From: Oligoflexales bacterium
GTDB lineage: Bacteria > Bdellovibrionota_B > Oligoflexia > Oligoflexales > Bog-1112
Direction of reading: 5' to 3'
Length of the DNA: 50,519 bases
Assembly (NCBI GenBank): GCA_045106415.1
Contig: JBGCEP010000070.1
Coordinates: 1-50,519, forward strand
The notes beneath the pieces were generated by a model. The model ran no database searches. It was not told where the DNA came from and saw only the letters and a list, made by a program, of their open reading frames with translations. Position numbers and translations under genes: made by a program. This document shows, in pieces, positions 1 through 34,448 of the stretch (its first letter is position 1; each line of letters starts with the position of its first letter).

Positions 1-502
1 AGAAATCTTTTGCATAAGTTAAGGTTTCTCCAAGTTGAGTGTTTTCATCAGGAACGAGAGCAAATAGCCCTGGAATAAACTGAGTTTGAATACAAACTTG
101 CTTAGAACTTTGTACACCATCAACCTTAACGGCATCACCACCATCTAAACGACTGACCTTAAGTTTTGATTCGACCTGTATACCCTGAGGGATATTGATA
201 CAAACCTTCACGTCTTTTTTGAAATCAGGAATTTCTAGCTGAGCATTCACCATCGTAATCATAAGTGAAGTTTCACCAGTATCTTGCAAATCAACTTTAA
301 CAGGAGATTCAAACGTATCCTTCGTAATGTCGATTGATCCATTTAATGTTTGAATATCTTTATCTTCAGTATGCGGAATCACTTTAGATTCATTTGATGA
401 AGAAACGCCAATTTCAACATTGCTCAATGAGCGAGAATTCGTAGATTTTTCACCTTCACAAGCTTGAAATAATACAAGAAAAAAAACCATACGAAACAGC
501 AT
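1..502 (-). CDS. Hypothetical lipoprotein, runs off the left edge
   Basis: Not in the ORF track. Manual translation from ATG at 502 (GGAG RBS upstream) gives MLFRMVFFLVLFQAC-EGEKSTNSRS..., a hydrophobic stretch plus lipobox Cys, open to the window edge. Confidence 0.75.
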   Translation of the reverse strand, partial: MLFRMVFFLVLFQACEGEKSTNSRSLSNVEIGVSSSNESKVIPHTEDKDIQTLNGSIDITKDTFESPVKVDLQDTGETSLMITMVNAQLEIPDFKKDVKVCINIPQGIQVESKLKVSRLDGGDAVKVDGVQSSKQVCIQTQFIPGLFALVPDENTQLGETLTYAKDF

Positions 503-937
503 TTTTGACTCCTAAAAAATAAGATCATTACTCTAATCGGTCTACCTCCAGTTTTAAATTAACTTTTTTCTTATTTCGTTGGACTTAATTAATTATTGAG
601 AAAATTTTAACGTGATATAAGGCGCTTATCTTCATTACCCAGTAAAGGAAAAATCACCATTTAATGCCTAAGACTTGCCCGCCTACAAGAACGAATTTTT
701 AATACAGCAAGGCAAATCTTTATTTACACACCCATAAATATCAGATATTACTTTAAAAAGTGGATTTATCAACTTTTCAAAACTCTTAACGCGTAAATAA
801 AATCATCTAATGCCGTATAAGCCACATATCTCTTGACGATTTCCTATATCTACCTCAGTATCCATGGCGATAACGGCCGCAGTAAAGCCTCAACAATAAT
901 GCCGTCATCAAAAATCTCTACTTGATAAAGGATTTTT

Positions 938-3319
938 ATGTATATGGTTTATTATTCAAGAATTATTATTATATTCACAGCATGCATTGCTACATTTGGA
1001 ATAGGGTCGAACATAAAGCTTCTTCCTCATCAGAAAAAAGTTCTCAATCACCTTCATACAAACACAAATCAACACGGCCTTATTCTTTATCACGCTCTAG
1101 GTGCAGGCAAAACCATTACTTCTTTAGAGTACGCAAAAGAACAACACTTAAGCACAATTGTTCTAGCGCCAGAAGTCCTCAAAGCACATTGGTTAAAAGA
1201 AATAGAGAAAGTTGGTATTCCATCAAAAAAAATTATGATTTTAAGCTACAACACCTCCGAGGGTCTTGAAAAATTAAAAAACACTAACTTATCAAAATCA
1301 TTATTAATTGTAGACGAGGTGCAAAAGTTTATAGAGCAAGTACGACACTCTACAGATAAATGCTCTCTTAACTTATACTGGGACCTTTTAAAATCACGAA
1401 AGATTCTACTCTTAACCGGAACCCCTATATTCAATGACGCAACTGATATTGCATATATTGGAAATCTCGCTTTTGGCGAGGAAAAATTCCCTTTTCACCC
1501 AGATGAATTTAAAAATAAATACATGAGCATCGATACCACGACCTCTCTTTTCCGTGGGTACCTCACAGAAAGCAAACTCATGAGCACCGCCTTGCCTCTT
1601 TACGCAAGTTTTATTGGAGCTTCTTTAATCGCCGTAAGCGGTACATTTTGGGCACTACCTGTTATGTCAATGGTGGGATCTTCAGCATTAAATTTTATTA
1701 ATGAACAAAACCCAGTTAATCATGTCAGTTTCCGGAAGTTTGATGCTGCTGAATTTTCAGAGTTCAGTAACCGCTATATTTCCTATTACAAAAAGACTCC
1801 GAAAGACTCTAGCGATTACCCTTCGACCTCGGTTCACCCAATGAAAGTTTCTTATACAAACTCTCAAGTTAGCTTTTTTATGGATTTTTTAGACGGTGTC
1901 CTTACAAAAGAAAATCTAAACTTACTGCTCAAAGACTACCCAAACACCTACTCTCCAGCTATGCTACACATCAATAGCTCAAAGATTCAACAAGATCTAC
2001 TTGCTCAACCTGGCGCCGGACGTGAAATAGGAAACCTCAGTTTAAGAGGGACTCAAAAATTAGAGGAACCAATTAAATTTTTAAAAATCAAAGACCTTAT
2101 TCATGAAAACCCAGGTAAAACTGTTATTTATTCATCGTATTATCACAATGGCATTTTAAAATTCGCAGACTTTCTGAAAAAAAACAACATCAACTATGAA
2201 ATATTAGAAGCAAAATCCAGCACTCAAGACGTCCGAACAACCCTTGACCACTTTAATTCAGGAAAAAATAAAGTTTTATTACTTCACCCAGAAATTACAG
2301 AAGGTGTTTCTCTTATCGGAGTTGAACAGCTTCATATTTTAGAACCCGTGAAGAATGCAGCTCTCGAGAAACAAATTATAGGAAGAAGTGCCCGCTACCA
2401 ATCCCACAAACACCTCCCAAAACACCGTCAAACAGTCGACATATTCTTATGGGAGTCAACTGTAGAATACTCGCACTTAGGGTTGCCAACTGAAGCTGGG
2501 TTAGTACGTAGAGATCATTGGAGAAAGAGACACAGAGAAATCAACCCAAATCTATGGACAAACGGGATTACTCAACTAGATTCACAATACTTTAAAAAAG
2601 ACCAAACACCAGATCAACGTACAAACATAGATAAAAACTTTATTGTTGCAGATATGAATAGTTTTCAAAATATATGTGAAGGTCACTCACTCGAAAATTA
2701 TAGTAATAATAAAGTGTCACAATACAACCTTGCAACTCAACTCCATTCTCCTTTTGCATCACCATTGTTGTATCTCAATTATACAAACTACCAATCTCAT
2801 CATCTTAAAACTTTTCAAAAAGGGACAAAAATTGGAGAAATAACTAATAAAAAATCGGCTAGTTTTGATATTGAAATCCCTCACACCAATGAGATGAATA
2901 TTGGCTTTGGTCTTCGTCACACTACAGGCTTATTACAACCTAAAATATTAACAATATCCAACATTCCTTATTCCATACTTGAAATGGACCTAGCCCTTTT
3001 AAGTCGCATACACTACGAACATGATCGCTTACCTGAGGTTTCCTTTTACTGGAAAAATGAAATCGATTTATCTGTTTCTTTTATGCAACTTACAAATGGT
3101 CTAGGAATAGGGTTGCGTCAGTCTCTAGGAGCTCAAATGTTTATTTCAAAACACATAGGAATCAATATTGAATGTGGTCTTGAAGGAAAAGCTATCAAAG
3201 ATACAATGACTTCACATCATGACAACAATGAAATGTTTGAGTCACAAGAAATCCAACACTCTGTGAGCCACCTCAACCATCCTTTTGTAAACATTGGAGT
3301 CTTTTCGACATATTTCTGA
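938..3319 (+). CDS. SF2 (SNF2/poxvirus D6-D11-like) helicase with N-terminal signal-like peptide and C-terminal beta-barrel-like domain
   Basis: Q motif LLPHQ; motif I GLILYHALGAGKT; motif II IVDEVQ; motif III LLLTGTP; motif V ITEGVSL; motif VI QIIGRSARYQSH. AAAGGA RBS. C-terminus FVNIGVFSTYF. Confidence 0.85.
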   Translation: MYMVYYSRIIIIFTACIATFGIGSNIKLLPHQKKVLNHLHTNTNQHGLILYHALGAGKTITSLEYAKEQHLSTIVLAPEVLKAHWLKEIEKVGIPSKKIMILSYNTSEGLEKLKNTNLSKSLLIVDEVQKFIEQVRHSTDKCSLNLYWDLLKSRKILLLTGTPIFNDATDIAYIGNLAFGEEKFPFHPDEFKNKYMSIDTTTSLFRGYLTESKLMSTALPLYASFIGASLIAVSGTFWALPVMSMVGSSALNFINEQNPVNHVSFRKFDAAEFSEFSNRYISYYKKTPKDSSDYPSTSVHPMKVSYTNSQVSFFMDFLDGVLTKENLNLLLKDYPNTYSPAMLHINSSKIQQDLLAQPGAGREIGNLSLRGTQKLEEPIKFLKIKDLIHENPGKTVIYSSYYHNGILKFADFLKKNNINYEILEAKSSTQDVRTTLDHFNSGKNKVLLLHPEITEGVSLIGVEQLHILEPVKNAALEKQIIGRSARYQSHKHLPKHRQTVDIFLWESTVEYSHLGLPTEAGLVRRDHWRKRHREINPNLWTNGITQLDSQYFKKDQTPDQRTNIDKNFIVADMNSFQNICEGHSLENYSNNKVSQYNLATQLHSPFASPLLYLNYTNYQSHHLKTFQKGTKIGEITNKKSASFDIEIPHTNEMNIGFGLRHTTGLLQPKILTISNIPYSILEMDLALLSRIHYEHDRLPEVSFYWKNEIDLSVSFMQLTNGLGIGLRQSLGAQMFISKHIGINIECGLEGKAIKDTMTSHHDNNEMFESQEIQHSVSHLNHPFVNIGVFSTYF

Positions 3320-3383
3320 AAAACAAGGCTACTACCTCATACCTAGATAGAGGTACAGTCCACATCACTAGCTAGCCCTCACC

Positions 3384-5171
3384 TCAAAGACGCCTGATGC
3401 TATAAACAGGCCCTGATATATTTGAAGATGCGCCATTATCTTCTCTATGTTGGCTATGCTCTAATTGAAAATGAAATAACGGCAGATTTTCACCGACTGA
3501 GTAATGGTCAAGCTTAGGGTCGAAGCCCAGCATGTAGCCAAAGAAATCACACCCAATACCATATAAATAGTCAACTTTTGTTGGATCTGTTGAATTTTTA
3601 CGAATCAAGTCAAAAACCCCAGGTTTTTGTGCGGTGACTTTTGTTTTCATCTTCGAACAATCTCTATTTTGACTGTTCGTATAAAGATCATGAAAAACAT
3701 CTCCCCAATTATTTGAAATCACAGTAAAATCACGATCATCATCAGGCATGCTACTAATAACTATTGGGGATCCATTTTGATCTGTCAGAATTGTTGTCCA
3801 AAAAGACACTGGAGTACCATCACACGCTTCTGTCTGACTAATCCCGTCGCAACCATAAGTCACCATTTCATAACCATATGCACGCCCGGGTTTCCCAGCA
3901 AATACATAAACAGATTGCTCGAAAATCGTTGTGAAAAAATGAGGACGAAGTGTTGGGAAACTAGGATTAGCGCCCTCATATGAAGTATTCGTAGAGATCT
4001 GATCTCCTTGATTATAAAAGCGAAGCATTCGATTTAAATCAAGAACCATCGAAAGATCCACCGAACTTCCCTCTGCAATCTCAAAATTGGCTGGCAACTT
4101 AAATGTTAAAGAAAACTGTTTCTCAGCATAATCTAAGGGCATGTAGCCTCTATTTTTATACTCAGAATCATTCCCTTTCACAAAACTTCTCTCTAGAGAC
4201 ACCTTCATAAGTTGAGGTTCTTGATTTTCAAAGTCAGTACCCGTAACAGTTCCTTCGTCATATAACGATTTTCCAGAACGTGTACAATATTTGTGGAGTC
4301 CAGGGTGAGCAGAATCAGCACTGAAATCTGCGCTTAAACAACCTTTCATAAGGGATGAGTGCTTAAATGTAACAATGAGACTATTGTACACACCTGGTTT
4401 TACAGAAAACTTAGCCCCTGCATCACCTTCTTCTGTTTCTGATGCTTTTGCAATTAATTCTGATAAATCGACATGACCAGACTTTACTATGATCGAAACA
4501 CCATCTTCATCATCAAACACCACAGGTGTAGGAATATTTGTATTCGCTAAATCTGAAAAAACATAATCAGATTTTAAAGTTGCCTCATCAAACGTTAAAA
4601 GGTCAAAATCACTCTCTTTCACACCTGCAGACATCAATGCAGAAATAAGCTCTTCTTGTCCACTATACACATGGCCAACAACATTTGCTCTTAACTGTTC
4701 AATAACAGAATCAGATAATCCATCCGCACTCCATAACTCCAAGTGCTCCGCCTTAATAGAAAGATCTCCAGAAAAACCCCCTTCCGCGTTATTACCACTA
4801 TTAGCAAACTCTATCTTATAGATTGTGATGTGCATTTCATCTGGTGGACCCGATGTAATTTGATTTGGCTTATCAGCAGGTAAAGCAGTTGCTAATGCAA
4901 AAGAATCATCATAGAACCTCTCTGATAAAAGCTCTGTGCTAATTGCCAAACTTCCCGATGAAGTACTAGTAAAAGAAGAAGACGTTTTCTCTACAGCAAC
5001 AGCATCAACAGAATTTAATGCTTTAATATCAAGATTTACATACGACGCATTCAAAGACAGTGTTTCTGAAGATACAACTTGAGATCCATCAGTAGAACTA
5101 TCACTGTTATTTTGTTCATCACATGCTGACAATATCATAAAAAAAATTATACAATAAGAAAAATTTCGCAC
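3384..5171 (-). CDS. Hypothetical lipoprotein
   Basis: 595-aa ORF, GTG start after AGGAG, lipobox ILSAC, Ser/Thr-rich linker. No recognised catalytic motif. Confidence 0.75.
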   Translation of the reverse strand: MRNFSYCIIFFMILSACDEQNNSDSSTDGSQVVSSETLSLNASYVNLDIKALNSVDAVAVEKTSSSFTSTSSGSLAISTELLSERFYDDSFALATALPADKPNQITSGPPDEMHITIYKIEFANSGNNAEGGFSGDLSIKAEHLELWSADGLSDSVIEQLRANVVGHVYSGQEELISALMSAGVKESDFDLLTFDEATLKSDYVFSDLANTNIPTPVVFDDEDGVSIIVKSGHVDLSELIAKASETEEGDAGAKFSVKPGVYNSLIVTFKHSSLMKGCLSADFSADSAHPGLHKYCTRSGKSLYDEGTVTGTDFENQEPQLMKVSLERSFVKGNDSEYKNRGYMPLDYAEKQFSLTFKLPANFEIAEGSSVDLSMVLDLNRMLRFYNQGDQISTNTSYEGANPSFPTLRPHFFTTIFEQSVYVFAGKPGRAYGYEMVTYGCDGISQTEACDGTPVSFWTTILTDQNGSPIVISSMPDDDRDFTVISNNWGDVFHDLYTNSQNRDCSKMKTKVTAQKPGVFDLIRKNSTDPTKVDYLYGIGCDFFGYMLGFDPKLDHYSVGENLPLFHFQLEHSQHREDNGASSNISGPVYSIRRL

Positions 5172-5231: not shown

Positions 5232-5779
5232 ATTTTTTAACTCAAGACTATAAATAATGTGAATTTAAACACCTATTTTATTTGATATTTTAACTACTTA
5301 AGTTTTCAAAAACGCTTCAGTTATACTAATGCAGATAAACAACCATACCCAACGGTGATTGCACATTTTAAGCAGATGAGAGAATTATTTTACATACATA
5401 CCTGAAATTGATCAGTCCATGATGTTTTTGTAATTTGCATTTTATTTTAACAACCCCAGATTTGATACCTTGACTACGCTGCAAGATATGAGACTCGTTA
5501 AACCTAGTTCAAGCCCATTATTCAAGCTATTTGAGGATATCTGACAAAATCATAAGATATCGTTTTGGTCTGATCAGAGGCAGATATATTCCGTGTTTTT
5601 TGGAACTAAGTCAAAAATATTTTAGATAAACAAAATTGGTTTCAAGGAAAATTTTTTTGAATTTTACATATATCACCAAAGATCTCAATAAGTTCACTAT
5701 AAATAGTTTAAAATACAAAACCTTGACAAGGATTATTTTCTTCTCTACTTTCCACCTGATTATTCTTTCTGGAGTTATT

Positions 5780-6682
5780 ATGTTTCTCAGAACACTTTGT
5801 CCCGCTCTCGCTCTTACCTTACAGTCCTTTCAACCAACTTTGTGTGCTCCTGGTGAAGAATTTTTTGATTTTTATATAAAAGAAACAACACCCTTGCACA
5901 CGACTAAAAATAGCTCTGTCTTTCTTTGTACACATAAAAAAACTGGTCACCAAAAAATTCTAAAAGAGTTCTTTCTCAAGTCTTACGACAAAAATCCTGA
6001 CCATGAATTACAAATGATGCATCTTTTACAACAAAAACCGCATCCACATCTTATTCATTTAGAAGATGAATTTATTACTAATTCTCTGCGACGTTTTATA
6101 TTTAAGCGATATACACGGGATCTTTTCGACCAGATTTTTTCATCCCCTCTAACTTCATCTCAACAAAAAAATATTTTTTTCAATATTGCTTCAGCCGTTG
6201 CTCATCTGCACAGAAATGAAGTTGCTCACCGTGATATCTCTTTAGAAAACATCCTTATCAATCGTGACTTAGAAGGGTGCCTATGTGATTTAGGAGCAGC
6301 ATCCTACAAAGAAGATATGACTTCTACATTTTGTGGTAAAAGAAATTATGCTGCCCCTGAAGTTTTCCACTCTCTGAAATACAGAACCCCATATGACCCT
6401 TATAGCGCAGACATTTGGTCTTTGGGTATTACTTTTTATGTTGCAGCATTTCAGAATTTTCTATTTGATGAAGCAAATAATCAATCGCTAGATTTTAAAA
6501 TATTTAAAGAGGCACTTTATCCAGAAAAATTTATAAAAGAAAAAGAGTCTGAAAATATTGACCCGTTATTTCTTGATCTTCTTGTGAAAATGCTGAGAAT
6601 TAATCCAGAGGAAAGAATAGATATTGAAGGCGTTCTCATACATAAATGGTTTTCTCATGAAGAGGGATCTTTAAAACTTTAA
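5780..6682 (+). CDS. Eukaryote-like Ser/Thr protein kinase (CAMK-like) with predicted signal peptide
   Basis: ATG 5780 follows GGAG (preferred over 5636). Motifs: ILK Lys, HRDISLEN, DLG, CGKRNYAAPE, DIWSLG, PEERI. N-terminus MFLRTLCPALALTLQSFQPTLCA. Confidence 0.9.
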   Translation: MFLRTLCPALALTLQSFQPTLCAPGEEFFDFYIKETTPLHTTKNSSVFLCTHKKTGHQKILKEFFLKSYDKNPDHELQMMHLLQQKPHPHLIHLEDEFITNSLRRFIFKRYTRDLFDQIFSSPLTSSQQKNIFFNIASAVAHLHRNEVAHRDISLENILINRDLEGCLCDLGAASYKEDMTSTFCGKRNYAAPEVFHSLKYRTPYDPYSADIWSLGITFYVAAFQNFLFDEANNQSLDFKIFKEALYPEKFIKEKESENIDPLFLDLLVKMLRINPEERIDIEGVLIHKWFSHEEGSLKL

Positions 6683-6803: not shown

Positions 6804-8420
6804 ATGCCCAGAAAAATGACTGTCGAGAACAAAAAAAATAAAAAAATCAGAAAAATTACAGCCATCTGCATCTCTTTGATTTTTCTAAACCCTACAGTGA
6901 AGGGGCAACCTTCTTCTAAAAACTTAGCTATCACCAGCAGTGCTTTATGTCTTGGCGCTTTAATAATGCACAGCTTTCTAAAAAAAGCAGAAGACAGCAC
7001 TTCAACAGAGGACATTCTCCTCCCTCCAACAAAAAATAAAATACCAATAAAAAAAGATTATTATGAAGAAATAAATATTGAGAATTCAAATTTTTGTTCC
7101 CAAGAAATCAGAGAAGAAGGTCTAAAACCTTTAAATGCAATTTTAAAGTCACACATAATTTCATCAAAAAGCTCACAAGCATTGAAAAGCCTCATTAAGT
7201 CCCTGCAGAGCACTTTGAATGTACTTAGGATCCAACAGATTGAAAGTCAAAACTCTGGAATATATGACTGGCACTCTCAAATTAGACACGCAAGAACAGA
7301 ATACTTTAGCCATCTTCCATATAAGCTGACACAGATTGAGGATCAAGATTGGGAACTTATCCCAGGGCTGCCTTTTTTAACACAACACGGTACTATTGAA
7401 CTTGCTTCTGTCACTCCGTTAAAAGCGACCCACCCAGGAATCGCTGGTTTTATTGTCATACCACAGAAGTTTACAAGTGATAATGAAATTATTGTTTCAT
7501 TTACAGGAACACAGAGTCGCGCGAGTCAATGGCGAGACACTGAGGGCTTTACTAACTTTTCAACAAACCCAGGGTACAAGAGTATTCTTGGTTCCCAGGA
7601 TCTCATACTCCATCAGGTTTGGGAAAAAATAAGTCTCTATACCAAATCACCTTATACACTTATATTTGCAGGACACAGCTTAGGTGGTGCAGACGCACAA
7701 CACATAGCTGAAGCCTTTACACGCAGCTTATTAATAAAATCACAAGAAAACTCAGACCTTTTTCTTATATTTCAAAGAATATGGGTCTGCATGAGCAATT
7801 CAGCAGGTATTCCTCTTCATTTATCTACTCAGAGTTTAGAAACATTAAAAAAAATTCAGATATTTAGCAATAAAGCCAGTCATGTCATTAACTTAAGAAT
7901 TTCCGCGGTTCTCATTGATGGTGACGGTGTTCAACTCACAGGTGAAGGAACTTTATGGCAATCTTTAAAAACAAAAAATGTCGACATCGAAGTTTTTAAA
8001 ATTCGCTATTTTTCCGAACAAAATTCACCCCGATGGATTCATAGAATATTAAAACCTGCTATCATAACTAGTGGAATCATCATGTTTCCATTTACGACAG
8101 TATTTACTCATATTGGCTCAACAACGATAGAAATGTTAAGAACAACAATAACAAGTCACCGTCTTAAATATTATGCACACTCTTCTGCTCTGCAAATTTC
8201 TAGCTTTGCTGAAATTGAACTTATCCAAGGTCAAGATGCTATCAAACTTTTAAGTAACAAAATATGTACATATCATTGGTTTGAATTTTTACTTCCAAAC
8301 ATACCCCTTGCTCAAAACCTTTCTTTATCTCAAACATCTAAAAAAGGCGAATTTCAAAAAATGAACTCTCATGATTGGGAAATATTACACGACCCTTGGG
8401 AAAATCAAAAATATGAATAA
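6804..8420 (+). CDS. Lipase class 3 family protein
   Basis: IIVSFTGT lid motif and FAGHSLGG nucleophile elbow. Basic then hydrophobic N-terminus, plus a second hydrophobic segment near the C-terminus. Confidence 0.8.
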   Translation: MPRKMTVENKKNKKIRKITAICISLIFLNPTVKGQPSSKNLAITSSALCLGALIMHSFLKKAEDSTSTEDILLPPTKNKIPIKKDYYEEINIENSNFCSQEIREEGLKPLNAILKSHIISSKSSQALKSLIKSLQSTLNVLRIQQIESQNSGIYDWHSQIRHARTEYFSHLPYKLTQIEDQDWELIPGLPFLTQHGTIELASVTPLKATHPGIAGFIVIPQKFTSDNEIIVSFTGTQSRASQWRDTEGFTNFSTNPGYKSILGSQDLILHQVWEKISLYTKSPYTLIFAGHSLGGADAQHIAEAFTRSLLIKSQENSDLFLIFQRIWVCMSNSAGIPLHLSTQSLETLKKIQIFSNKASHVINLRISAVLIDGDGVQLTGEGTLWQSLKTKNVDIEVFKIRYFSEQNSPRWIHRILKPAIITSGIIMFPFTTVFTHIGSTTIEMLRTTITSHRLKYYAHSSALQISSFAEIELIQGQDAIKLLSNKICTYHWFEFLLPNIPLAQNLSLSQTSKKGEFQKMNSHDWEILHDPWENQKYE

Positions 8421-8640: not shown

Positions 8641-9669
8641 ATGGATGAGTGCGACTTATCAAATGCTCAATATGACCCACACCTTTCCCAGGCTAACTAT
8701 GAAAACGATACTCAACTTTTCTGGGCAAGCCTCGACTACATTCAAAATCAAAGTTTAATCGATATTATAGAAAAAATCCTCACAGCTCACGGGTTTGAAA
8801 TTAATATAGAAAACTGTCTATCATGCTTAGATAGTTTTCAAATAAGCCTTCTGATTAAAATGAAATCTACTTTACTCTCAGAACCAAAAGCTCAAAAATT
8901 CATACCATGCATAAGCTTTAACCTTCCTTCCAAACAAAGAAAAGGTGGTTTTTTAAATCTTTTCTACAAAGAAATTGAAGGTTTTGAAAAAAAAGAAGAG
9001 AAATCTGAAAAATCAAAAACCACTAGTGAAGATAAAGATAAAATTATTTCAGAACAAAAAAAAGAAATTAAAATTCTCGAAGAAAAAAATCGTTATTTAG
9101 AAAATATTTTAAAAAAACAAACTCCTAATATTCATGTCATTACAGAAAACACAGGTCTCCAAGATCTTGAAGTAAGAGAAGGATTTGTTTACAAAATTAA
9201 TTACATGCAAAGACACCTTACCCTGAAATCAGGAAGGCAACATTTTAAAATTTCTTTTTCTAATTTACCAAGCCTTCCTCTTGAAAAAGAGATTTGTTTG
9301 ATAAAAACAAATCATAAAAAAACACAAATAGATTTAATCCCTTTGGAAAGTACTCCACATCATTTTGATTATGTCATAGGAATAGTTGTATCAAAAAAGA
9401 ACAATACTATAAAAATAAAAATACCTGAAAGAGGTTATTGGCAAATCAAAGCTATTCACCAAAAAGAAAAAGATGAAATAAACAGAGTACATAGAAACCA
9501 AAACATCTTAGTGGTTATGGTTGCAGATAAGATTATACGGATACATCATATAAAAAAATCACATCATAGTATCGATGAAATAAAAGAAGAGATAATTATG
9601 CATGATATCCATACCACCCAAGAGACTTTAAATATTGAGGATAATGACATTGAATATGCAAGAGTTTAA
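8641..9669 (+). CDS. Hypothetical protein (coiled coil followed by beta-rich, possibly OB-like repeats); first gene of the MotAB-helicase operon
   Basis: 342-aa ORF with GAGGA RBS and a central E/K-rich heptad region. The stop overlaps the start region of the MotA-like gene. Confidence 0.8.
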   Translation: MDECDLSNAQYDPHLSQANYENDTQLFWASLDYIQNQSLIDIIEKILTAHGFEINIENCLSCLDSFQISLLIKMKSTLLSEPKAQKFIPCISFNLPSKQRKGGFLNLFYKEIEGFEKKEEKSEKSKTTSEDKDKIISEQKKEIKILEEKNRYLENILKKQTPNIHVITENTGLQDLEVREGFVYKINYMQRHLTLKSGRQHFKISFSNLPSLPLEKEICLIKTNHKKTQIDLIPLESTPHHFDYVIGIVVSKKNNTIKIKIPERGYWQIKAIHQKEKDEINRVHRNQNILVVMVADKIIRIHHIKKSHHSIDEIKEEIIMHDIHTTQETLNIEDNDIEYARV

Positions 9670-10435
9670 ACAACAAAGCTATATTCAGACTTCTGTGAAA
9701 AAGTCTGACCCATTTTCTTTCTTTCTAGGTACAGGACTTATTTTCTATCTGATTTATTCCATAGTAGGTTCTGTCAGCTTAGATTTTTTTTGGGATCTTA
9801 AAAGTTTTGTCATCGTTTTTGGTGGTACTCTTGGTAGCTTAATTATGCAATATGATTTTTCTTCTTTCTGGCAAGTCTTCGTCGATATTAAAAATTCTTT
9901 TTATAATAAAACAGAACAATCTATGAAAAATTCTTTACAAGATCTTGATAAAGCAATTTTAGAAGGTTTGGATATTTTTGAATTAAGAGAAGGAAATGAA
10001 ATAAATGGAGATCTTTTAAATGATTCTATTTATATGATTAAGCAAAACCTAAATTACGAGGAGATCACAGAATTTATATCTGTTAAAATTGAAAATATTT
10101 ATTCAAAAAGAAACCATAGCGTTATCGTTTTGCAAAGAGCAAGTATTCTCGCACCTTCTTTAGGTCTTTTTGGTACAGTGATTGGCCTAGTTTCTCTTTT
10201 AAAATCCTTAAGTGATCCTAGCCTCATTGGTCCTGCAATGTCACTTGCTCTTTTAACAACTGCTTATGGTTCTGGTCTGTCTTCACTCATTATAAGCCCT
10301 CTTGCAGGTCGAGTTGAGCATAGTAATCGTAAATTTTTAGATCTTCACCACCAATTCATGAGTAAGATATCAATCCTTATCAAAAGGTATGAAAAATTAA
10401 TGAATGAAGATCAACAAGGAAAGCTTTCGTTATGA
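9644..10435 (+). CDS. MotA/PomA-like (MotA/TolQ/ExbB) ion-channel stator subunit
   Basis: FVIVFGGTLG; APSLGLFGTVIGLV...LSDPSLIGPAMSLALLTTAYG; four hydrophobic segments. Start could be 9644 or 9656. Confidence 0.9.
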   Translation: MTLNMQEFKQQSYIQTSVKKSDPFSFFLGTGLIFYLIYSIVGSVSLDFFWDLKSFVIVFGGTLGSLIMQYDFSSFWQVFVDIKNSFYNKTEQSMKNSLQDLDKAILEGLDIFELREGNEINGDLLNDSIYMIKQNLNYEEITEFISVKIENIYSKRNHSVIVLQRASILAPSLGLFGTVIGLVSLLKSLSDPSLIGPAMSLALLTTAYGSGLSSLIISPLAGRVEHSNRKFLDLHHQFMSKISILIKRYEKLMNEDQQGKLSL

Positions 10436-11076
10436 AAGAACACCATAAGCCACAAGATCAATATGCTATGAATAATACCACAGCATTTTATATGAGTTTT
10501 GGTGATCTGATGGTCATTCTTTGTTGTTTTTTTGTTCTCATCCACAGTGTTAGTAAAGTTGAAATAGGCTCTTTTGAGAGAATACGGACTCAATTCACAG
10601 GAACCTCTAAAGGAAGCCTTGTTGAACTTTCAGAGGATTTGCAAAAAATAATCAAATTAAGCAAGATGGAAGACATTCAAGTCAGTTACGACTCCGATGG
10701 AGTGCGACTTAATATGGAAACAACTTCTTTATTTGAAGTAAGCTCTGCCATTGTAAAAAAAGAAGCACTTCAACCTTTGGAAAAAATCCTGCTCAAAGTT
10801 AGAGAAACTCCCTATACACTTGATATTGAAGGTCACACTGATGACCAAGGACTCTATAGAGTAAGAGACGATCTCCTTGAAACAAATTGGTCATTAAGTG
10901 GCTTAAGAGCAAGTTCTGTCTTACATCACCTTATCGCCCTTGGTTTTAAAGAAACAAGAATGCGAATAGTTGGGTATGCTTCCAATAGACCTAAAATTGG
11001 AATATCAGGGAAACAAGGATTAGAGCTCTCACAAGCACGGGCTGCAAACCGCAGAGTTTCAATTTTGATCCATTAA
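10432..11076 (+). CDS. MotB-like protein with OmpA peptidoglycan-binding domain
   Basis: TM helix FYMSFGDLMVILCCFFVLI with the conserved ion-binding Asp; IEGHTD, NWSLSGLRA, NRRVSI. ATGA overlap with the motA-like stop. Confidence 0.9.
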   Translation: MKEHHKPQDQYAMNNTTAFYMSFGDLMVILCCFFVLIHSVSKVEIGSFERIRTQFTGTSKGSLVELSEDLQKIIKLSKMEDIQVSYDSDGVRLNMETTSLFEVSSAIVKKEALQPLEKILLKVRETPYTLDIEGHTDDQGLYRVRDDLLETNWSLSGLRASSVLHHLIALGFKETRMRIVGYASNRPKIGISGKQGLELSQARAANRRVSILIH

Positions 11077-11090
11077 AATTGCGAGGAAAT

Positions 11091-14000
11091 ATGTCCATCT
11101 GGAACAAAAAAAATAAAGCATCAATAAAAATTAATAAAGATTTCCACCTTCAATTATCTAAAAACCATCATGACTCGGGTTTTTCGCTACTCTCTATTGA
11201 AAACATTTCAAAAAAAGAAAAAATATATATAGAAGAAGATATTATTCAAAAATTAGAAAATTTCTTAGATAGATCAAAAGATATTATTACAAATGGAAAG
11301 ATTTTTCACAATGGAAAAATATATTTATCGTGTTCGCAAGATAATGATGACAGTAATTTTTTTATTTTAAAAAATGAATACCACTCTAAATATGGATTTA
11401 TCAGTCTTCAACAGCAGATGATACCAGGTTTTATATCAGTGTTAAATGACCACCGCCTTAAAACCCATCACGACACACTTACAAAAATCATCAATTACCA
11501 TCGTCTTTTTCAATTTACTTTTGAAGATCAACAAGAAAGTATGAATAGCGACTTATCTATGAGAAGGAACATATTAAGTCATCTAACACAATATACACCA
11601 CGTATAAAACAACAAACTGGTAAAGAATTACTACAGAAATCGGTAGCACACATTCAAGATTATAAAAACACTTCAGAATTAAAGAACAATCAAACTCATA
11701 ATAAATTTCAGTCAAAACTTGGGGTGAGATCAGCAAATAGCCCATACGAGATCGACTACAATCATTTATTACAATCATCTTCTCATCCAGGTAAAAACCC
11801 TTTAAAAAAAGAAGAACATTTTGACCCTGAATCTTCTATTTCTTATTATCCCATACAATTAACTTCATCTACTATAAAACAATATCAACACAAACCTTAT
11901 GAGTGTGATATTTCTTCTGAAGAAATGAAAAACATCAAAAATCACTTTATTTCTCATAATAAATTTGATTTTTTTCTTGGTTTTGAAATGATGCAAGCAA
12001 TTTTCAAAAAAGACAAAAAACAAAAAAGCTTTGTTTTTCCATTGTATTATATGAAAGTTGAAATTAATCACATCGACAACACACTTCAAATAAAGCCCAT
12101 TGAGAACGGGCGTTATTATCTTAACTACATCGCAATCATTAATCTCATTGAGACTTTCAGTAGAAATCAAAGCAAAGATGATTTTGAATCTTTTTTCAAC
12201 GGTTTATTGCAACATCGATTTGAAGTTGATCAAAAAGAAAATCGTCTTAATCTTTCTCGCACATTACCTGTAAAAGAAGAGTTTTTTAAGAAATATCGTG
12301 ATTATCTTCTTGGTGACATCGAAAAAGATGATCAAAAAGGAATTTTTTCAGATTTAAAAATTGCTGGTGTCGAGTGTGATGTTGAAGATGTTTATTTATA
12401 CCGAACTCAAAATCACCTTAGTATTGCATCTCAATGCTTGAATTTAGATCTTGGTTTTATTGAAGAATTATCTGAAAAACAAAAAAACAAATTCAATTCT
12501 TCATTACTAGGAAAATTTTTAGATAAAAAATTAGCAAAGATAGAAAAAAATCAGGAAAAAAACTCTATAGCTTGGATGCCAGGAGCTCTTCCTCAGAGCA
12601 TGAAGAATTTAAATAAAAAAATAAAAGAACATGATCTTCTTGTTCTACAAGGTCCGCCTGGGACAGGGAAGACTCATACAATAAGAAATATTCTGATTGA
12701 TGCTCTTTGTCATGATAAAAAAATCATGATCGTGAGCGATCGAGGTTCGGCCATTGAGGCAGTTATGGACAAAATGGAATCTTACTTCTTACAGCATACT
12801 AACGATGAGTTTAATAAAAAAATTATACAGAATTTTTGGAGAAGATGTATCCCATGTATTCCAGAGTTATCTCAAGATCCATCACAACTTCGAACGTTTA
12901 TAAAAACTATTGTTGATCAACTTTTTTTAAAAAACTCTGATACTTACGACCACATTGATTCGGACATTAAAAATCTTGACAAAGAATTCGAACAATTAGA
13001 ATTAAAACGGAAAAAGATGCGTGATGAACTTGATTTTATTCTCAAAAATCAAATAACTTCATCTCCTCATGATTTTATTGGAAGCGCAAATCGCAAAGGG
13101 CAACCAACCAATAAAGAAGATATCGATCAAATAATGATATTTAAAATATTCTTGGATAAAAAAATTAAAGATAAAGAAGAGGGATCGCAAGAATATCTAA
13201 AAGGGCAGGAAGTTCTTTCTAGTTTTATTCAGCGTCTTTGTGAAATCCAAAAAGGAATATTCCATGAATTTTATATCTTTTTCCATATTAATAAAGAAAA
13301 AGATCTTTTTTTATTAGAAAAATTTTGCGATACAATAGAACAAATAAAACCAGAAACATGTGATGATCTTATTGAATGCCTTGAAGACCTTGATAATACA
13401 TTTCTTACAAAATTATTTTCAAAAAAATTCAATCAAAAACAACCTCCTGACGCTGGGGTTTTTCAAACTATACCTTTAAAAATAAGGAGAAAGTTTAAAT
13501 ATCCTTTGTATGACTTCATTACTAAACTCCAACTTTACATTAAAGAACATAAACTCTTCCTAGATATTATTAGAAATGAAGATTCTTCAATATGGAATGA
13601 ATCTTTGAAAATTTATGATTTTTTTCACAAATCATCGAAAAGAGAATTGTTTCCGTTTTCTTTGGAGTTAATTTTTTATAAATCTGCTTTAAAAGAAAAA
13701 TTAAAATATAAAGAGCACAAATCCTACCAAAAAACTCCACACTATATTTTAAATGAATTAAAAATTTTACAAGATCGTAAAGATTCAATTATTCTAGAAA
13801 AATCAATACTTAAACTTCAACACATAGCAGATAAATTAGATCACACTTCAGAAAAAGATTCTCAACCCTTGAAATCAAAAATTCTCTATCTTTGTGATCA
13901 AATTTCTGAGAAAGAAAACCTATCTTTATGTATCCCTCTCTTACAAGACTTACAAAAACATCTCATACAAAGTTTTCCAGTATGGGTATGCCGCAAACAA

Positions 14001-15323
14001 GCTATTCCTTTTCTTATCCCATGCCAAAGTCAAGTTGTTGATCTTATTATCATAGATGAAGCTACTCAATGCAGAGTCGACGACAGCCTCCCTTTATTGA
14101 TGAGAGCTAAAAAAATTATGGTTGTCGGTGATGATAAACAGACCGTTCTCAATAAAAATTCGATAATCGATGATTATTTATTTAATGAACTTAATTTAAA
14201 AGAACACCTTGCTTCAACACAGTCAGCAAACCTAAAAGGTGGTGGTTCCCATATTTTTGGGCTTTTAAAAGATATTCAACAAGCAGAAATTTTACTAGAT
14301 GAACACTATCGATGTCCTCCTGATATTATTTCATACTCAAATGAATACGTGTATCACAATCAACTGAAAATTATGCAATGGGAAAAAGAAAGTCAACACG
14401 AGTCTGTTCATATTGATTACAGTGAAAAAGATTTCCCTCTAGGAAAAAGACAAGTCGCCGGTCCTTATAAGGGTTTAGACACGGGAATGATCGACCGATT
14501 TCTAGATTATGTGTGCAATGAAATTGAAAAAATAGAAAAACAAAAAGGTATAAAAGTCAACGTCGAAACCGATGTTGCACTTTGTTATTTTCTTCTTAAA
14601 AACAACTCTTATTTTGATGATATAAAATCAAAATTTTTAACTCGTCTAAATCGAGGTCACTCCATTCTTAGTGGTGCTGGCGCTGCACTCCAAGGAAAAG
14701 AACGAGATTATATCTTTTATTTTTGGGATTGTTATCGTGGAAATTTTGCTTCATTTAAACAAGGTGATGATGAAAACAAAAGAAAAGGTGAACTTAACGT
14801 TCTCATGAGCCGCCCCAAAAAAAAAGCTTATCACTTCTTACACCATAGCTTTCAAGATTTAGCACATAGTAAATCATCTATTACAGATTATCTATGGAGC
14901 CGATATCAAAAAAAATTTGATATCTCGGAGAAAAAAACATACCAGGTGCGCCAGCAACATCCTGGGGAATCTTATCCTCAGAATAGGGGAAGTGGACAAC
15001 TTATGCTCTCACTAATTCAACCGGCTTATAGTCAGCTCATAGCCCAAACATCATGCCAGTTCAGTAAACATGTTGGAAATCCAAGATACCAAGTTGACTT
15101 AATTTTAGAAAACAAAGACCCTCATAAAAAATCTTTATGTTTTAAAGACTTAAGCCAATTTTTATATCATGACACATCTGTTGATGAGGTTATAGATTAC
15201 TTTTTTCAGCTACAACGAGCACAGCCATCACTAAATCCCGTCTTTTGTTTTCTGCACCATTTTCTAGACACAGATGGCGACGTCGTTGCAGAAATCAAAG
15301 AATTTCTGAATGATTCACTATAA
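11091..15323 (+). CDS. Large SF1 (DNA2/NAM7/Upf1-like, AAA_11/AAA_12) helicase with possible degenerate C-terminal restriction-endonuclease-like domain
   Basis: ATG 11091 after GAGGA. Motifs QGPPGTGKT, IIDEATQ, VVGDDKQ, LDEHYRC, LQGKERD, LNVLMSRPK. Tail VGNPRYQVDLIL resembles Vsr/MTES-type YRIDL domains. Confidence 0.9.
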   Translation: MSIWNKKNKASIKINKDFHLQLSKNHHDSGFSLLSIENISKKEKIYIEEDIIQKLENFLDRSKDIITNGKIFHNGKIYLSCSQDNDDSNFFILKNEYHSKYGFISLQQQMIPGFISVLNDHRLKTHHDTLTKIINYHRLFQFTFEDQQESMNSDLSMRRNILSHLTQYTPRIKQQTGKELLQKSVAHIQDYKNTSELKNNQTHNKFQSKLGVRSANSPYEIDYNHLLQSSSHPGKNPLKKEEHFDPESSISYYPIQLTSSTIKQYQHKPYECDISSEEMKNIKNHFISHNKFDFFLGFEMMQAIFKKDKKQKSFVFPLYYMKVEINHIDNTLQIKPIENGRYYLNYIAIINLIETFSRNQSKDDFESFFNGLLQHRFEVDQKENRLNLSRTLPVKEEFFKKYRDYLLGDIEKDDQKGIFSDLKIAGVECDVEDVYLYRTQNHLSIASQCLNLDLGFIEELSEKQKNKFNSSLLGKFLDKKLAKIEKNQEKNSIAWMPGALPQSMKNLNKKIKEHDLLVLQGPPGTGKTHTIRNILIDALCHDKKIMIVSDRGSAIEAVMDKMESYFLQHTNDEFNKKIIQNFWRRCIPCIPELSQDPSQLRTFIKTIVDQLFLKNSDTYDHIDSDIKNLDKEFEQLELKRKKMRDELDFILKNQITSSPHDFIGSANRKGQPTNKEDIDQIMIFKIFLDKKIKDKEEGSQEYLKGQEVLSSFIQRLCEIQKGIFHEFYIFFHINKEKDLFLLEKFCDTIEQIKPETCDDLIECLEDLDNTFLTKLFSKKFNQKQPPDAGVFQTIPLKIRRKFKYPLYDFITKLQLYIKEHKLFLDIIRNEDSSIWNESLKIYDFFHKSSKRELFPFSLELIFYKSALKEKLKYKEHKSYQKTPHYILNELKILQDRKDSIILEKSILKLQHIADKLDHTSEKDSQPLKSKILYLCDQISEKENLSLCIPLLQDLQKHLIQSFPVWVCRKQAIPFLIPCQSQVVDLIIIDEATQCRVDDSLPLLMRAKKIMVVGDDKQTVLNKNSIIDDYLFNELNLKEHLASTQSANLKGGGSHIFGLLKDIQQAEILLDEHYRCPPDIISYSNEYVYHNQLKIMQWEKESQHESVHIDYSEKDFPLGKRQVAGPYKGLDTGMIDRFLDYVCNEIEKIEKQKGIKVNVETDVALCYFLLKNNSYFDDIKSKFLTRLNRGHSILSGAGAALQGKERDYIFYFWDCYRGNFASFKQGDDENKRKGELNVLMSRPKKKAYHFLHHSFQDLAHSKSSITDYLWSRYQKKFDISEKKTYQVRQQHPGESYPQNRGSGQLMLSLIQPAYSQLIAQTSCQFSKHVGNPRYQVDLILENKDPHKKSLCFKDLSQFLYHDTSVDEVIDYFFQLQRAQPSLNPVFCFLHHFLDTDGDVVAEIKEFLNDSL

Positions 15324-32140: not shown

Positions 32141-33169
32141 GTGCAAAATCCTTGGGGCGACGAACAAACTCAATATTTCTATGAACTCACACCTGATAAA
32201 ATCTTCCAAGCTTTTGATTCTATTGGCTTACGTTCGACAGGTCGTTGTTCGACCATGTTTAGTATGGAGAATCGCGTTTATGATGTCGAGCTGCAATTGC
32301 CGGACACCCCTAAGCATAGATGGGAACACCATAGAATTGTCAAATTCTATCGCCCCGGCCGCTGGAGCCAGGAACAGATCCAGGAAGAGCATGATTTCTT
32401 AAACGACCTCTGTGAAGCTGAAGTACCAGTTATTGCTCCCTTAGCTCTTTCAGACAACCAAACTCTTGTAAAAGACTCTGCAACGGAACTTTTCTTTACT
32501 TTATTCCCGAGGGTTGGAGGTCGAACTCCTGATGAGTTCTCACTAGAGCAAATTCCTCAGGTTGCACGATTCATGGCTCGCATGCATGCTGTGGGATCAA
32601 AAAAAACTGCGCTCCACCGCATGTCAATCACACCTGAAACCTATGGACTCAATCACTTAGACACCCTTTTAAGTGGCCGTTTTATGCCAAACGACCTTCA
32701 TGCTGAATACAAAGCAACCGTTGAAAGCATATGTCAAATGACAGCACCTTGGTTTGAAGAGACAACCTTTCAGAGAATTCATGGCGACTGCCACAAAGGC
32801 AATATTCTAATGACACCTGAAGGCGCAACATGGCTCGACTTTGACGACATGCTCATGGGACCTTGCGTACAAGACATGTGGCTTCTCATTCCAGGATTTG
32901 AAAAACCTGGAATCATAAGAGACACGTTTTTAGAAGCTTATGAGAGCATGTTTAACTTTGACTATAAAAGCCTTCGTCTTATCGAGCCTTTAAGGGCTTT
33001 ACGTTATATTCATTTTAGTTCATGGATTGCTAAAAGATGGGACGATCCTGTTTTCCCTGCAACCTTTCCTCATTTTAATGAGCGTGGTTATTGGGTTGAG
33101 CAGCTGAACGACCTTAAGGAGCAACTCCATTTGATAGAACAGATCGCAAAAGGACCTTCACACTTATGA
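32141..33169 (+). CDS. srkA: Stress response kinase SrkA/RdoA (YihE)
   Basis: SMENRVY, KFYRPGRWS, EEHDF, RIHGDCHKGN, DFDD, QDMW, ARRW-like AKRWDDP. GTG 32141 after GGAGG. Confidence 0.9.
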   Translation: MQNPWGDEQTQYFYELTPDKIFQAFDSIGLRSTGRCSTMFSMENRVYDVELQLPDTPKHRWEHHRIVKFYRPGRWSQEQIQEEHDFLNDLCEAEVPVIAPLALSDNQTLVKDSATELFFTLFPRVGGRTPDEFSLEQIPQVARFMARMHAVGSKKTALHRMSITPETYGLNHLDTLLSGRFMPNDLHAEYKATVESICQMTAPWFEETTFQRIHGDCHKGNILMTPEGATWLDFDDMLMGPCVQDMWLLIPGFEKPGIIRDTFLEAYESMFNFDYKSLRLIEPLRALRYIHFSSWIAKRWDDPVFPATFPHFNERGYWVEQLNDLKEQLHLIEQIAKGPSHL

Positions 33170-34437: not shown

Positions 34438-34448
34438 GTTTTTAAATT

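Follow-up and report, generated by a model that had tools for sequence, protein, structure and literature searches.

The window analysed here is a complete contig of 50.5 kb (JBGCEP010000070.1; 50,519 nucleotides) from a metagenome-assembled genome (MAG) of an Oligoflexales bacterium, 2.95 Mb in size and 94% complete. Near its start lies a complete gene (938..3319, + strand; 793 codons plus stop) whose product was read, from the list of open reading frames (ORFs), the translation and an AlphaFold2 model, as an SNF2 ATPase of the NPH-I/D6-like kind with a predicted export signal and a predicted outer-membrane barrel fused to its C-terminus. The gene is a single open frame with no internal stop, follows a ribosome-binding site (AAGGA; 928..932, +) placed 5 nt before the ATG, and ends in ...FSTYF. 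A full-length AlphaFold2 model, built on an alignment of 114 homologues, reached a mean predicted local distance difference test score (pLDDT) of 92.3 and a predicted template modelling score (pTM) of 0.87. The N-terminal signal, a charge-free hairpin between the ATPase lobes and the ATPase motifs are not chance features, because they are conserved across these 114 homologues. The predicted architecture, an exported helicase anchored by a barrel, is in our judgement very probable.

ATPase core, predicted export signal and inter-lobe hairpin

All features of the protein are encoded on the + strand. RecA-like lobe 1 (approximately residues 25-200; 1010..1537) is matched by the Pfam families SNF2-rel_dom and ResIII, and holds the Walker A sequence GAGKT (motif I; residues 55-59, 1100-1114), DEVQ (motif II; residues 126-129, 1313-1324) and TGTP (motif III; residues 161-164). 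RecA-like lobe 2 (approximately residues 380-510; 2075..2467) is matched by Helicase_C and contains motif V (TEGVSL, residues 454-459) and motif VI (QIIGRSAR, residues 479-486; 2372-2395). In a Pfam scan of the 793-aa protein, SNF2-rel_dom (PF00176) scored 39.4 bits (E 5e-10) against a cut-off of 24.9, and Helicase_C (PF00271) scored 43.1 bits (E 5.5e-11) against a cut-off of 23.5 over residues 380-487; the last 200 residues were without any Pfam match. The ATPase module closes with a helical region (residues 519-593; 2492..2716) that has model helices at 519-531, 543-547, 552-555, 558-583 and 585-593, and the linker at about residues 590-600 was modelled with low confidence (block 591-600, mean pLDDT 57). 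Residues G55, G57, K58, D126, E127, T162, E455, G456, Q479, R483 and R486 were invariant in all 114 sequences, from which it follows that selection keeps the ATP-binding and hydrolysis site functional. Motif II carries Q in the subclade of this protein and H in most of its relatives.

An earlier note, made from the sequence of this DNA alone, had likened the core to the helicases of poxviruses and giant viruses. The strings that it quoted were all found in the protein (SRIIIIFTACIATFGIG at residues 7-23, GLILYHALGAGKT at 47-59, EGVSLIGVEQLHILEP at 455-470 and QIIGRSARYQSHKHLP at 479-494), and profile searches, structure comparison and BFVD all favoured the NPH-I/D6 type over cellular SNF2 proteins. 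With the single protein as query, vaccinia NPH-I was the only sequence match in the PDB (E 4.3e-9). With a family profile of the 114 homologues, NPH-I was matched at 6.5e-31 and vaccinia VETF-S at 3.3e-15, followed by a Rad54-like protein as the best cellular SNF2 (1.1e-14) and by RapA (5e-5). Foldseek against the PDB placed NPH-I chains at ranks 1-6, ahead of ISW1, Mot1, CSB and Chd1. The best named matches in BFVD were giant-virus proteins labelled ‘early transcription factor 70 kDa’ (VETF) and D6R-type helicases (E 1e-27 to 1e-22), and relatives are encoded on over 530 contigs of viruses, with giant-virus MAGs making up many of these. In the ESM Atlas, the nearest clusters consist of viral SNF2 helicases; their value of about 0.81 is too low to count as more than a lead. 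Computation thus shows the core to be an SNF2 ATPase of the poxvirus NPH-I and giant-virus D6-D11 type, with the catalytic motifs all kept. It is a relative of NPH-I and not an orthologue, because it lacks NPHI_C (PF08469; no match in the Pfam scan at E <= 0.1), has a barrel at its C-terminus instead and is located in a bacterial genome. PADLOC, NCBIfam and PHROGs gave generic partial SNF2 matches to the helicase only, and no curated family in Pfam, NCBIfam, PADLOC or PHROGs covers the helicase (beyond generic Pfam domains) or its barrel partner.

A quick phylogenetic tree was calculated in IQ-TREE (LG+G4; 50 rows, 590 columns) with support values from the SH-like approximate likelihood ratio test (SH-aLRT) only; four ordinary SNF2 proteins encoded by the same genome served as its root. 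One clade with a support of 100 comprises the exported bacterial rows, 19 in number. This clade lies within a larger one (support 100), together with two viral rows and 11 of the 13 signal-less relatives, and eleven other viral rows branch outside; the bacterial family is thus nested among viral rows. The contigs of the signal-less relatives have a G+C content of 19-34% and carry Rpb2, XPG-like and clamp-loader-like genes, and for these reasons look like those of giant viruses. The topology fits a capture of the helicase from giant viruses, on a small sampling in which the origin of the signal-less rows was assigned by gene context.

The N-terminus of the protein is a putative hydrophobic Sec-type signal (residues 1-23, MYMVYYSRIIIIFTACIATFGIG; 938..1006) with the highest hydropathy in the protein, and candidate cleavage sites after GIG and before S, or at the lipobox-like FTAC. 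Kyte-Doolittle hydropathy in 19-residue windows (KD19) was >=1.2 in three regions only: at about residues 10-21, at about residues 222-245 and at the isolated position 679 within the predicted barrel. The N-termini of 120 homologues were compared, and the signals of the 114 aligned homologues were classed by a simple rule set based on regular expressions. Hydrophobic N-terminal signals were found in 94 of the 114, with 67 resembling signal peptidase I (SPase-I) substrates, for instance MKFKKMIRIIAVVSALLTSFSFA cut before AQ, and 27 having a lipobox-like Cys (FISC, ISSC, LVGC, LSGC and others, including the ambiguous FTAC of the protein itself). The lipobox-like N-termini frequently have a tether of 20-40 residues ahead of the first helicase motif. 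Among the 20 sequences classed as signal-less, 12 make up the most distant group (P0105-P0120), and at least one of the other eight, P0011, is a truncated gene call, because a longer ORF is present in its locus. The export signal proposed in the earlier note is supported across the family by rule set and comparison; the n- and c-regions of the protein's own signal are weaker than those of its orthologues, which have canonical sites such as SFA before E. Genes for LspA and for two proteins of the Omp85 family are present in the bacterium's own genome.

Between the two lobes, the AlphaFold2 secondary structure shows a helical hairpin (residues 213-257, with helices at 213-234 and 239-257; 1574..1708). 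The hydrophobic insertion that the earlier note had described at this place is indeed present, in a stretch that begins at residue 219 (LPLYASFIGASLIAVSGTFWALPVMSMVGSSAL). The hairpin includes a run of 42 residues free of D, E, K and R, with a maximum KD19 of 1.7, and in most exported relatives an equivalent stretch of about 40 residues is likewise uncharged, its maximum KD19 being about 2. In other SNF2 proteins, viral or cellular, the insert position spans 4-26 residues (4-14 in 11 of the 14 viral rows and in the four cellular rows of the genome). The signal-less giant-virus relatives have a longer insert there, of about 60-190 residues, which also includes hydrophobic stretches. Judged by the alignment, the long inter-lobe insert is a character of the clade, and because the signal-less giant-virus relatives have hydrophobic inserts as well, membrane association seems to be older than export. 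In three of the giant-virus-like loci (L123, L124 and L129, among L120-L134), the helicase was observed as the C-terminal part of a 1468-aa protein, and there may be membrane-tethered NPH-I-like helicases in giant viruses.

The C-terminal domain and its stand-alone partners

The C-terminal domain (residues 600-793; 2735..3316) is predicted by AlphaFold2 and Foldseek to be an 8-stranded beta-barrel, with the motif FDIEIP at residues 643-648 and a terminal ...STYF. Its strands were placed at residues 610-625, 631-648, 653-668, 678-694, 701-716, 720-735, 740-754 and 776-790, and eight strands of 15-18 residues, with a pLDDT mostly >90, were obtained both in the full-length model and in a separate model of the domain (pLDDT 85.1 for the latter). 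Foldseek gave 41 matches in the PDB at E <= 1e-3, and those listed were all outer-membrane proteins, which bears out the beta-strand pattern that the earlier note had seen in the C-terminus. The matches were headed by OprG (2.4e-6) and the OmpA transmembrane domain (3.4e-6) and included NspA, OmpW, OmpX, Ail and PagL, with TM-scores of 0.5-0.63. Larger barrels were also among them with poorer scores, and the autotransporter barrels of Hbp and NalP ranked 33rd and 49th (TMq 0.31-0.39). The fused and stand-alone members inspected mostly end in F, Y, W or L (...STYF, ...TTYL, ...KLGF, ...KIAY), and three end in I or A (...RTTI, ...KTTI, ...KTTA). A phmmer search of the domain against 1.84 billion representatives returned two fused helicases only, a word-indexed search among shorter proteins gave no stand-alone homologue, none of 71 candidates having scored, and NCBIfam and PADLOC had no match to the single stand-alone barrel that was scanned.

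Stand-alone partners were found via gene neighbourhood and profiles only. Across 27 unique loci, in which barrels were scored by hidden Markov model (HMM), a barrel was present in 22: fused to the helicase in 8, encoded by a divergent upstream gene in 10 and by the gene directly downstream in 4. In three of the other five loci, the product of a neighbouring gene resembles a barrel and has a signal-like start, with a weak or no HMM match, and two are without a usable flank; in one fused locus (L032), lobe 1 is missing from the ORF found. The divergent upstream genes encode barrels of about 165-275 aa. Eight of these ten were inspected, and seven have a hydrophobic signal-like N-terminus of their own (the exception being the ORF found in L020), six have the motif [FYV][DNE][ILMV]E[IV] with P, T or N after it, and the C-terminus is ...TTYL/F/W or ...STYL in every one of the eight. 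Alignment by hhalign of the fused-domain profile from the protein's clade with the stand-alone upstream barrels gave a probability of 98.2% (E 6e-14, 184 columns), and with the more divergent ‘downstream’ type a weak 44.6%. By this profile comparison, the fused domain is homologous to the stand-alone upstream barrels. As a control, the 15 giant-virus-like loci of the signal-less relatives were searched, and none of their 156 ORFs matched a barrel. Two Rickettsiales MAG loci, L033 (3810-5078) and L034 (7689-8933), have a downstream protein of 414-422 aa with a signal-like start and an end in ...HVTF or ...ININF. These two proteins had borderline matches to the barrel profiles and may be a bigger or two-domain version of the barrel partner.

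The fused domain itself recurs in seven orthologues and three more divergent fused forms, each of about 790-810 aa, and the genome has a paralogue of 47% identity that carries it too; for this reason it is not a chance feature. The paralogue (G000:C27:109876-112209; locus L002, ORF 1399-3837) has 812 aa with the same signal, hairpin and fused barrel, and ends in ...STYF. It adjoins a 465-aa ORF that is class II fumarase-like by eye, in a neighbourhood unlike that of the window. As the window is a MAG contig and the two parts are often separate genes in relatives, an artefact of assembly or gene calling could in principle have joined the helicase gene to that of an unrelated outer-membrane protein. 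The comparative data refute this reading, to which we assign a practically negligible probability: the same fusion occurs in the seven orthologues, which are of different sources, in the paralogue on a separate contig and, independently, in other clades, and it is encoded in one frame free of stops. In addition, a Logan contig of 1219 nt from one public run covers 1928-3146 with one difference and bridges the junction between helicase and barrel; it is not independent support, because it possibly comes from the source sample of the MAG itself. Among the matches listed, the public runs that match the gene include no RNA run and two DNA runs, which belong to the same study and are possibly the MAG's own source. 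The fusion is accordingly taken to be genuine.

Fused forms are found in three separate subclades of the tree, beside unfused ones, so that fusion or fission must have happened repeatedly. By the Rosetta-stone argument, such repetition indicates that helicase and barrel work together. No gene cluster besides the barrel was common to more than three of the listed loci, some of which are duplicate copies of one place. A predicted complex of the natural split pair of L014 (helicase residues 13-581, barrel residues 81-274) gave ipSAE values of 0.47, 0.23 and 0.01, with a median of 0.23 against a mark of 0.32, and counts neither for nor against binding.

The same data bear on the possibility that the protein is a cytoplasmic ATPase anchored in the inner membrane, in which the N-terminal helix and the hairpin would be three transmembrane helices, the lobes would be cytoplasmic and the C-terminal domain would be no outer-membrane barrel. 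Such a placing would give the lobes access to ATP, and hydrophobic inserts already exist at the same position in the signal-less giant-virus relatives, which presumably lie on the cytoplasmic side. Against this, the positively charged n-regions (MKFKK...) and the lipoboxes with long tethers argue for cleaved signals in the N-in orientation. The stand-alone partner barrels seen have their own signal-like start and end in an aromatic residue or Leu, the C-terminal domain matches outer-membrane proteins only (among the Foldseek matches listed), and signal and barrel co-occur in 22 of 27 loci by HMM (25 with the barrel-like neighbours) compared with 0 of 15 for the signal-less relatives. We therefore regard an inner-membrane anchoring as very improbable.

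Carriers, neighbouring genes and proposed working

All related genome records are MAGs, and their taxa are given by record labels. The carriers are labelled Oligoflexales/Oligoflexia, Bdellovibrionia, Pseudobdellovibrionaceae, ‘Deltaproteobacteria’, ‘Myxococcales’/Myxococcaceae, Rickettsiales and, in one case, ‘Zetaproteobacteria’; one Gammaproteobacteria MAG carries three copies of the helicase. Their genomes are mostly 1.0-3.5 Mb, with one relative of 6.3 Mb. Of the 131 genomes examined from the window's phylum, 8 have the helicase, and these 8 belong without exception to the window's own family, which is represented by 16 genomes. Full-length TLC ATP/ADP translocases were present in all 16 genomes of this family, in 1 of the 115 genomes elsewhere in the phylum and in none of 14 control genomes. 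The genome of the window has three full-length TLC genes (G000:C83:9695-11140, C10:35617-37059 and C10:71538-73013), and an MFS protein with a partial TLC match is encoded in the window itself (40949-42199). An excerpt of one study describes TLC transporters as a hallmark of energy parasitism in chlamydiae and rickettsiae (PMC1951785). The distribution of TLC genes suggests that the whole bacterial family of the window consists of energy parasites. Among the helicase-bearing genomes reached through the loci, 11 of 15 have a TLC gene, or 8 of 12 when three of the 11 that duplicate family genomes are left out. This co-occurrence is a pattern rather than a statistical test, because related genomes are not independent.

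In the working that we propose, the polypeptide would be exported by Sec, and the fused barrel, or the separate partner, would be inserted into the outer membrane by the barrel assembly machinery (BAM). As an even-stranded barrel has both of its ends in the periplasm, the ATPase module would be tethered at the periplasmic face of the outer membrane and hang there; a periplasmic location of the module is rather likely. In relatives, tethering would be achieved by a lipid anchor or by the separate barrel partner, and the hairpin may dip into the membrane leaflet or pack against the barrel. Since the carriers are small-genome bacteria with TLC, host ATP must cross their periplasm, and this ATP, bound for the TLC carriers, would supply the motor. 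As SNF2 enzymes do, the motor would then move along DNA or RNA that reaches the outer membrane, and would most likely pull in, unwind or strip host or prey nucleic acid for uptake or breakdown. Taken as a whole, the protein is, tentatively, best seen as an outer-membrane-tethered periplasmic nucleic-acid translocase of viral origin that runs on host ATP, its location and function being deduced. With less assurance still, it might be part of an undescribed envelope machine in which a giant-virus-derived SNF2 translocase and a dedicated 8-stranded barrel, fuelled by host ATP, draw in or take apart the DNA or RNA of a host or prey. A role in nucleic-acid uptake or processing, taken by itself, we regard as somewhat unlikely.

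Several observations weigh against an exported, host-ATP-driven motor. Textbook accounts leave the periplasm without ATP. The protein's own signal is atypical, with a strong h-region, a single Arg, no clear AxA and the ambiguous FTAC, and the hydrophobic hairpin of about 40 residues could act as a stop-transfer sequence that holds the protein in the inner membrane. None of 11 barrels (the fused domain and 10 stand-alone ones) reached the threshold of a Pfam outer-membrane family, the best match being to OMP_b-brl (PF13505) at E 0.22. The earlier note had also proposed a C-terminal BAM signal; the aromatic end (...FSTYF) stands, and the terminal ...STYF/...TTYL does not keep the canonical G-x-x-Y-x-F spacing of E. 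coli beta-signals. In the loci examined, genes for nucleic-acid uptake or for nucleases do not recur next to the module. Four of the 15 helicase-bearing genomes were without a TLC gene seen, in genomes whose completeness is not established and one of which is only 1.1 Mb. Finally, within the window's family TLC is found in 16 of 16 genomes and the helicase in 8 of 16, so that the link between helicase and TLC there amounts to a single clade event.

The surroundings of the gene were considered as well. Two small ORFs overlap it (922-1269, +, and 1246-1434, -); no gene-like features were seen for them in the ORF list, beyond which they were searched no further. A scan for promoters and terminators did no better than chance, returning 10 promoter-like sites where 9.3 would be expected. 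The flanking genes at 2-502 (-) and 3384-5171 (-) encode proteins with lipoprotein-like starts (...LFQAC and ...ILSAC) and of no Pfam family, and the helicase gene thus sits amid genes for predicted exported proteins with unassigned function. They are followed by a eukaryote-type Ser/Thr protein kinase (5636-6682, +; Pkinase E 2e-40) with long hydrophobic N-terminal segments ahead of the kinase domain and, adjoining it, by a 538-aa protein (6804-8420, +) with a hydrophobic N-terminus and a weak class-3 lipase match. From their sequences, the kinase and the lipase-like protein look like exported, effector-like proteins.

Such neighbours would suit a delivered effector, displayed on the surface or packed in outer-membrane vesicles, that acts inside the host or prey cell on the chromatin or DNA present there, for instance by remodelling or stripping nucleic acids. 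An export signal combined with an outer-membrane anchor, be it barrel or lipid, would also agree with this, as would carriers that look host-dependent (mostly 1.0-3.5 Mb genomes and TLC transporters) and a core derived from viruses of eukaryotes; inside a host, moreover, ATP is available and its supply is no problem. An 8-stranded barrel, however, has no channel for a passenger of 570 aa, known autotransporter barrels being 12-stranded, and the termini of such barrels are both periplasmic. Secretion-system genes are not conserved beside the module in the loci examined either, no nuclear-localisation or eukaryote-targeting feature was seen, although no search aimed at one was made, and we consider the delivery of an effector unlikely.

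Further downstream lies a cluster of four genes (8641-15323, +) that encodes a 342-aa ORF of no assigned family, a MotA/ExbB-like protein (9635-10435), a MotB/OmpA-like protein (10432-11076) that matches ZorB models (E 4e-13), and a protein of 1414 aa that has AAA_11/AAA_12 and nSTAND3 domains and matches models of PDC-S37, Mokosh MkoA/MkoC and Hhe. The cluster looks like a candidate defence system, Zorya-like or otherwise coupled to a proton channel. With this MotAB-like and large-helicase cluster 5 kb downstream, the ATPase might be thought of as an envelope sentinel or defence motor, in which the tethered SNF2 protein blocks incoming phage or foreign DNA or passes it to nucleases. Defence systems often include SNF2 helicases, the gene is patchily distributed in the manner of an accessory gene (8 of 16 family genomes, and several phyla by MAG labels), and weak partial matches to PbeA (2.6e-11), DrmD and DpdE were obtained. 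These matches, however, span the generic lobe 1 only, and reach 34.9 bits against a cut-off of 500 for DpdE and 16.9 against 950 for DrmD. The barrel is the one neighbour conserved with the helicase; nucleases, methylases and other possible defence partners are not, and the MotAB cluster is absent as a conserved neighbour from related loci. A defence motor is accordingly quite unlikely. Elsewhere in the window (33166-35723, +), tandem paralogous genes of the sodium:neurotransmitter-symporter family (423 and 424 aa) follow a gene for an aminoglycoside-phosphotransferase-like kinase.

Because they depend on ATP and nucleic acid, helicases and SNF2 motors are taken to be confined to the cytoplasm or the nucleus. 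No description of an exported or barrel-linked SNF2 helicase was found among the titles and abstracts listed, with subscription literature outside the scope. What has been encountered is an SNF2/NPH-I-like ATPase whose predicted location and partner are both new, with an appreciable chance of its being a new kind of envelope machine. If the proposed outer-membrane-tethered translocase is real, motor-driven handling of nucleic acids takes place in the cell envelope, bacteria living on host ATP offer a testable case for an energised periplasm, and the family is a clear example of how bacteria that share eukaryotic hosts re-use a giant-virus gene. The helicase and barrel pair is a clean two-gene module, open to expression and testing.

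Comparison with known systems

Poxvirus NPH-I (D11), the VETF small subunit (D6) and giant-virus D6/D11-like helicases have the same two-lobe SNF2 core and motifs, and NPH-I is the best match in sequence and structure among solved proteins. NPH-I and D6 are enzymes of virus transcription. They show no hydrophobic insert in the alignments inspected, and typical viral relatives have 9-26 residues where the clade of the protein has a hydrophobic insert of about 40-190 residues. The ordinary, RapA-like bacterial SNF2 proteins, of which the genome of the window has five, belong to the same superfamily and form the tree's outgroup; signal, hairpin and barrel are all lacking in them, and their insert position is only 4-13 residues long. 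Membership of the known defence SNF2 proteins (DrmD, DpdE and PbeA) was ruled out, with no whole-protein match above curated cut-offs and PADLOC matches to lobe 1 only.

An enzyme of virus type in the periplasm would have a precedent in Lig E, a virus-like ATP-dependent DNA ligase with a signal peptide that excerpts of two sources assign to the periplasm, with roles for extracellular DNA and transformation (10.64898/2026.03.22.713542, PMC8455567). Lig E is unrelated to the helicase in sequence and has neither a membrane hairpin nor a barrel partner. As a ligase it spends one ATP per adenylation, whereas the helicase is a motor that needs a continuous supply.

The order of parts in the protein, with a signal peptide, a large N-terminal module and a C-terminal outer-membrane barrel, is that of type Va autotransporters. 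The barrel is predicted to have eight strands and not the 12 required, which rules out membership of this type; no pore-plugging helix is predicted, and the passenger is a two-lobe ATPase and not a beta-helix. In contrast to these autotransporters, most relatives of the helicase have the barrel as a separate gene, often divergently transcribed. The predicted fold of eight long antiparallel strands is the same as in OprG/OmpW, OmpA, NspA, OmpX, Ail and PagL, and the last residue is likewise aromatic. OmpA also pairs a barrel with a periplasmic domain, in the reverse order to the helicase, whose barrel is C-terminal to the soluble module. Compared with these known 8-stranded barrels, the helicase-linked barrel has conserved motifs of its own, PQTSF, FDIEIP and W-GL-SY.

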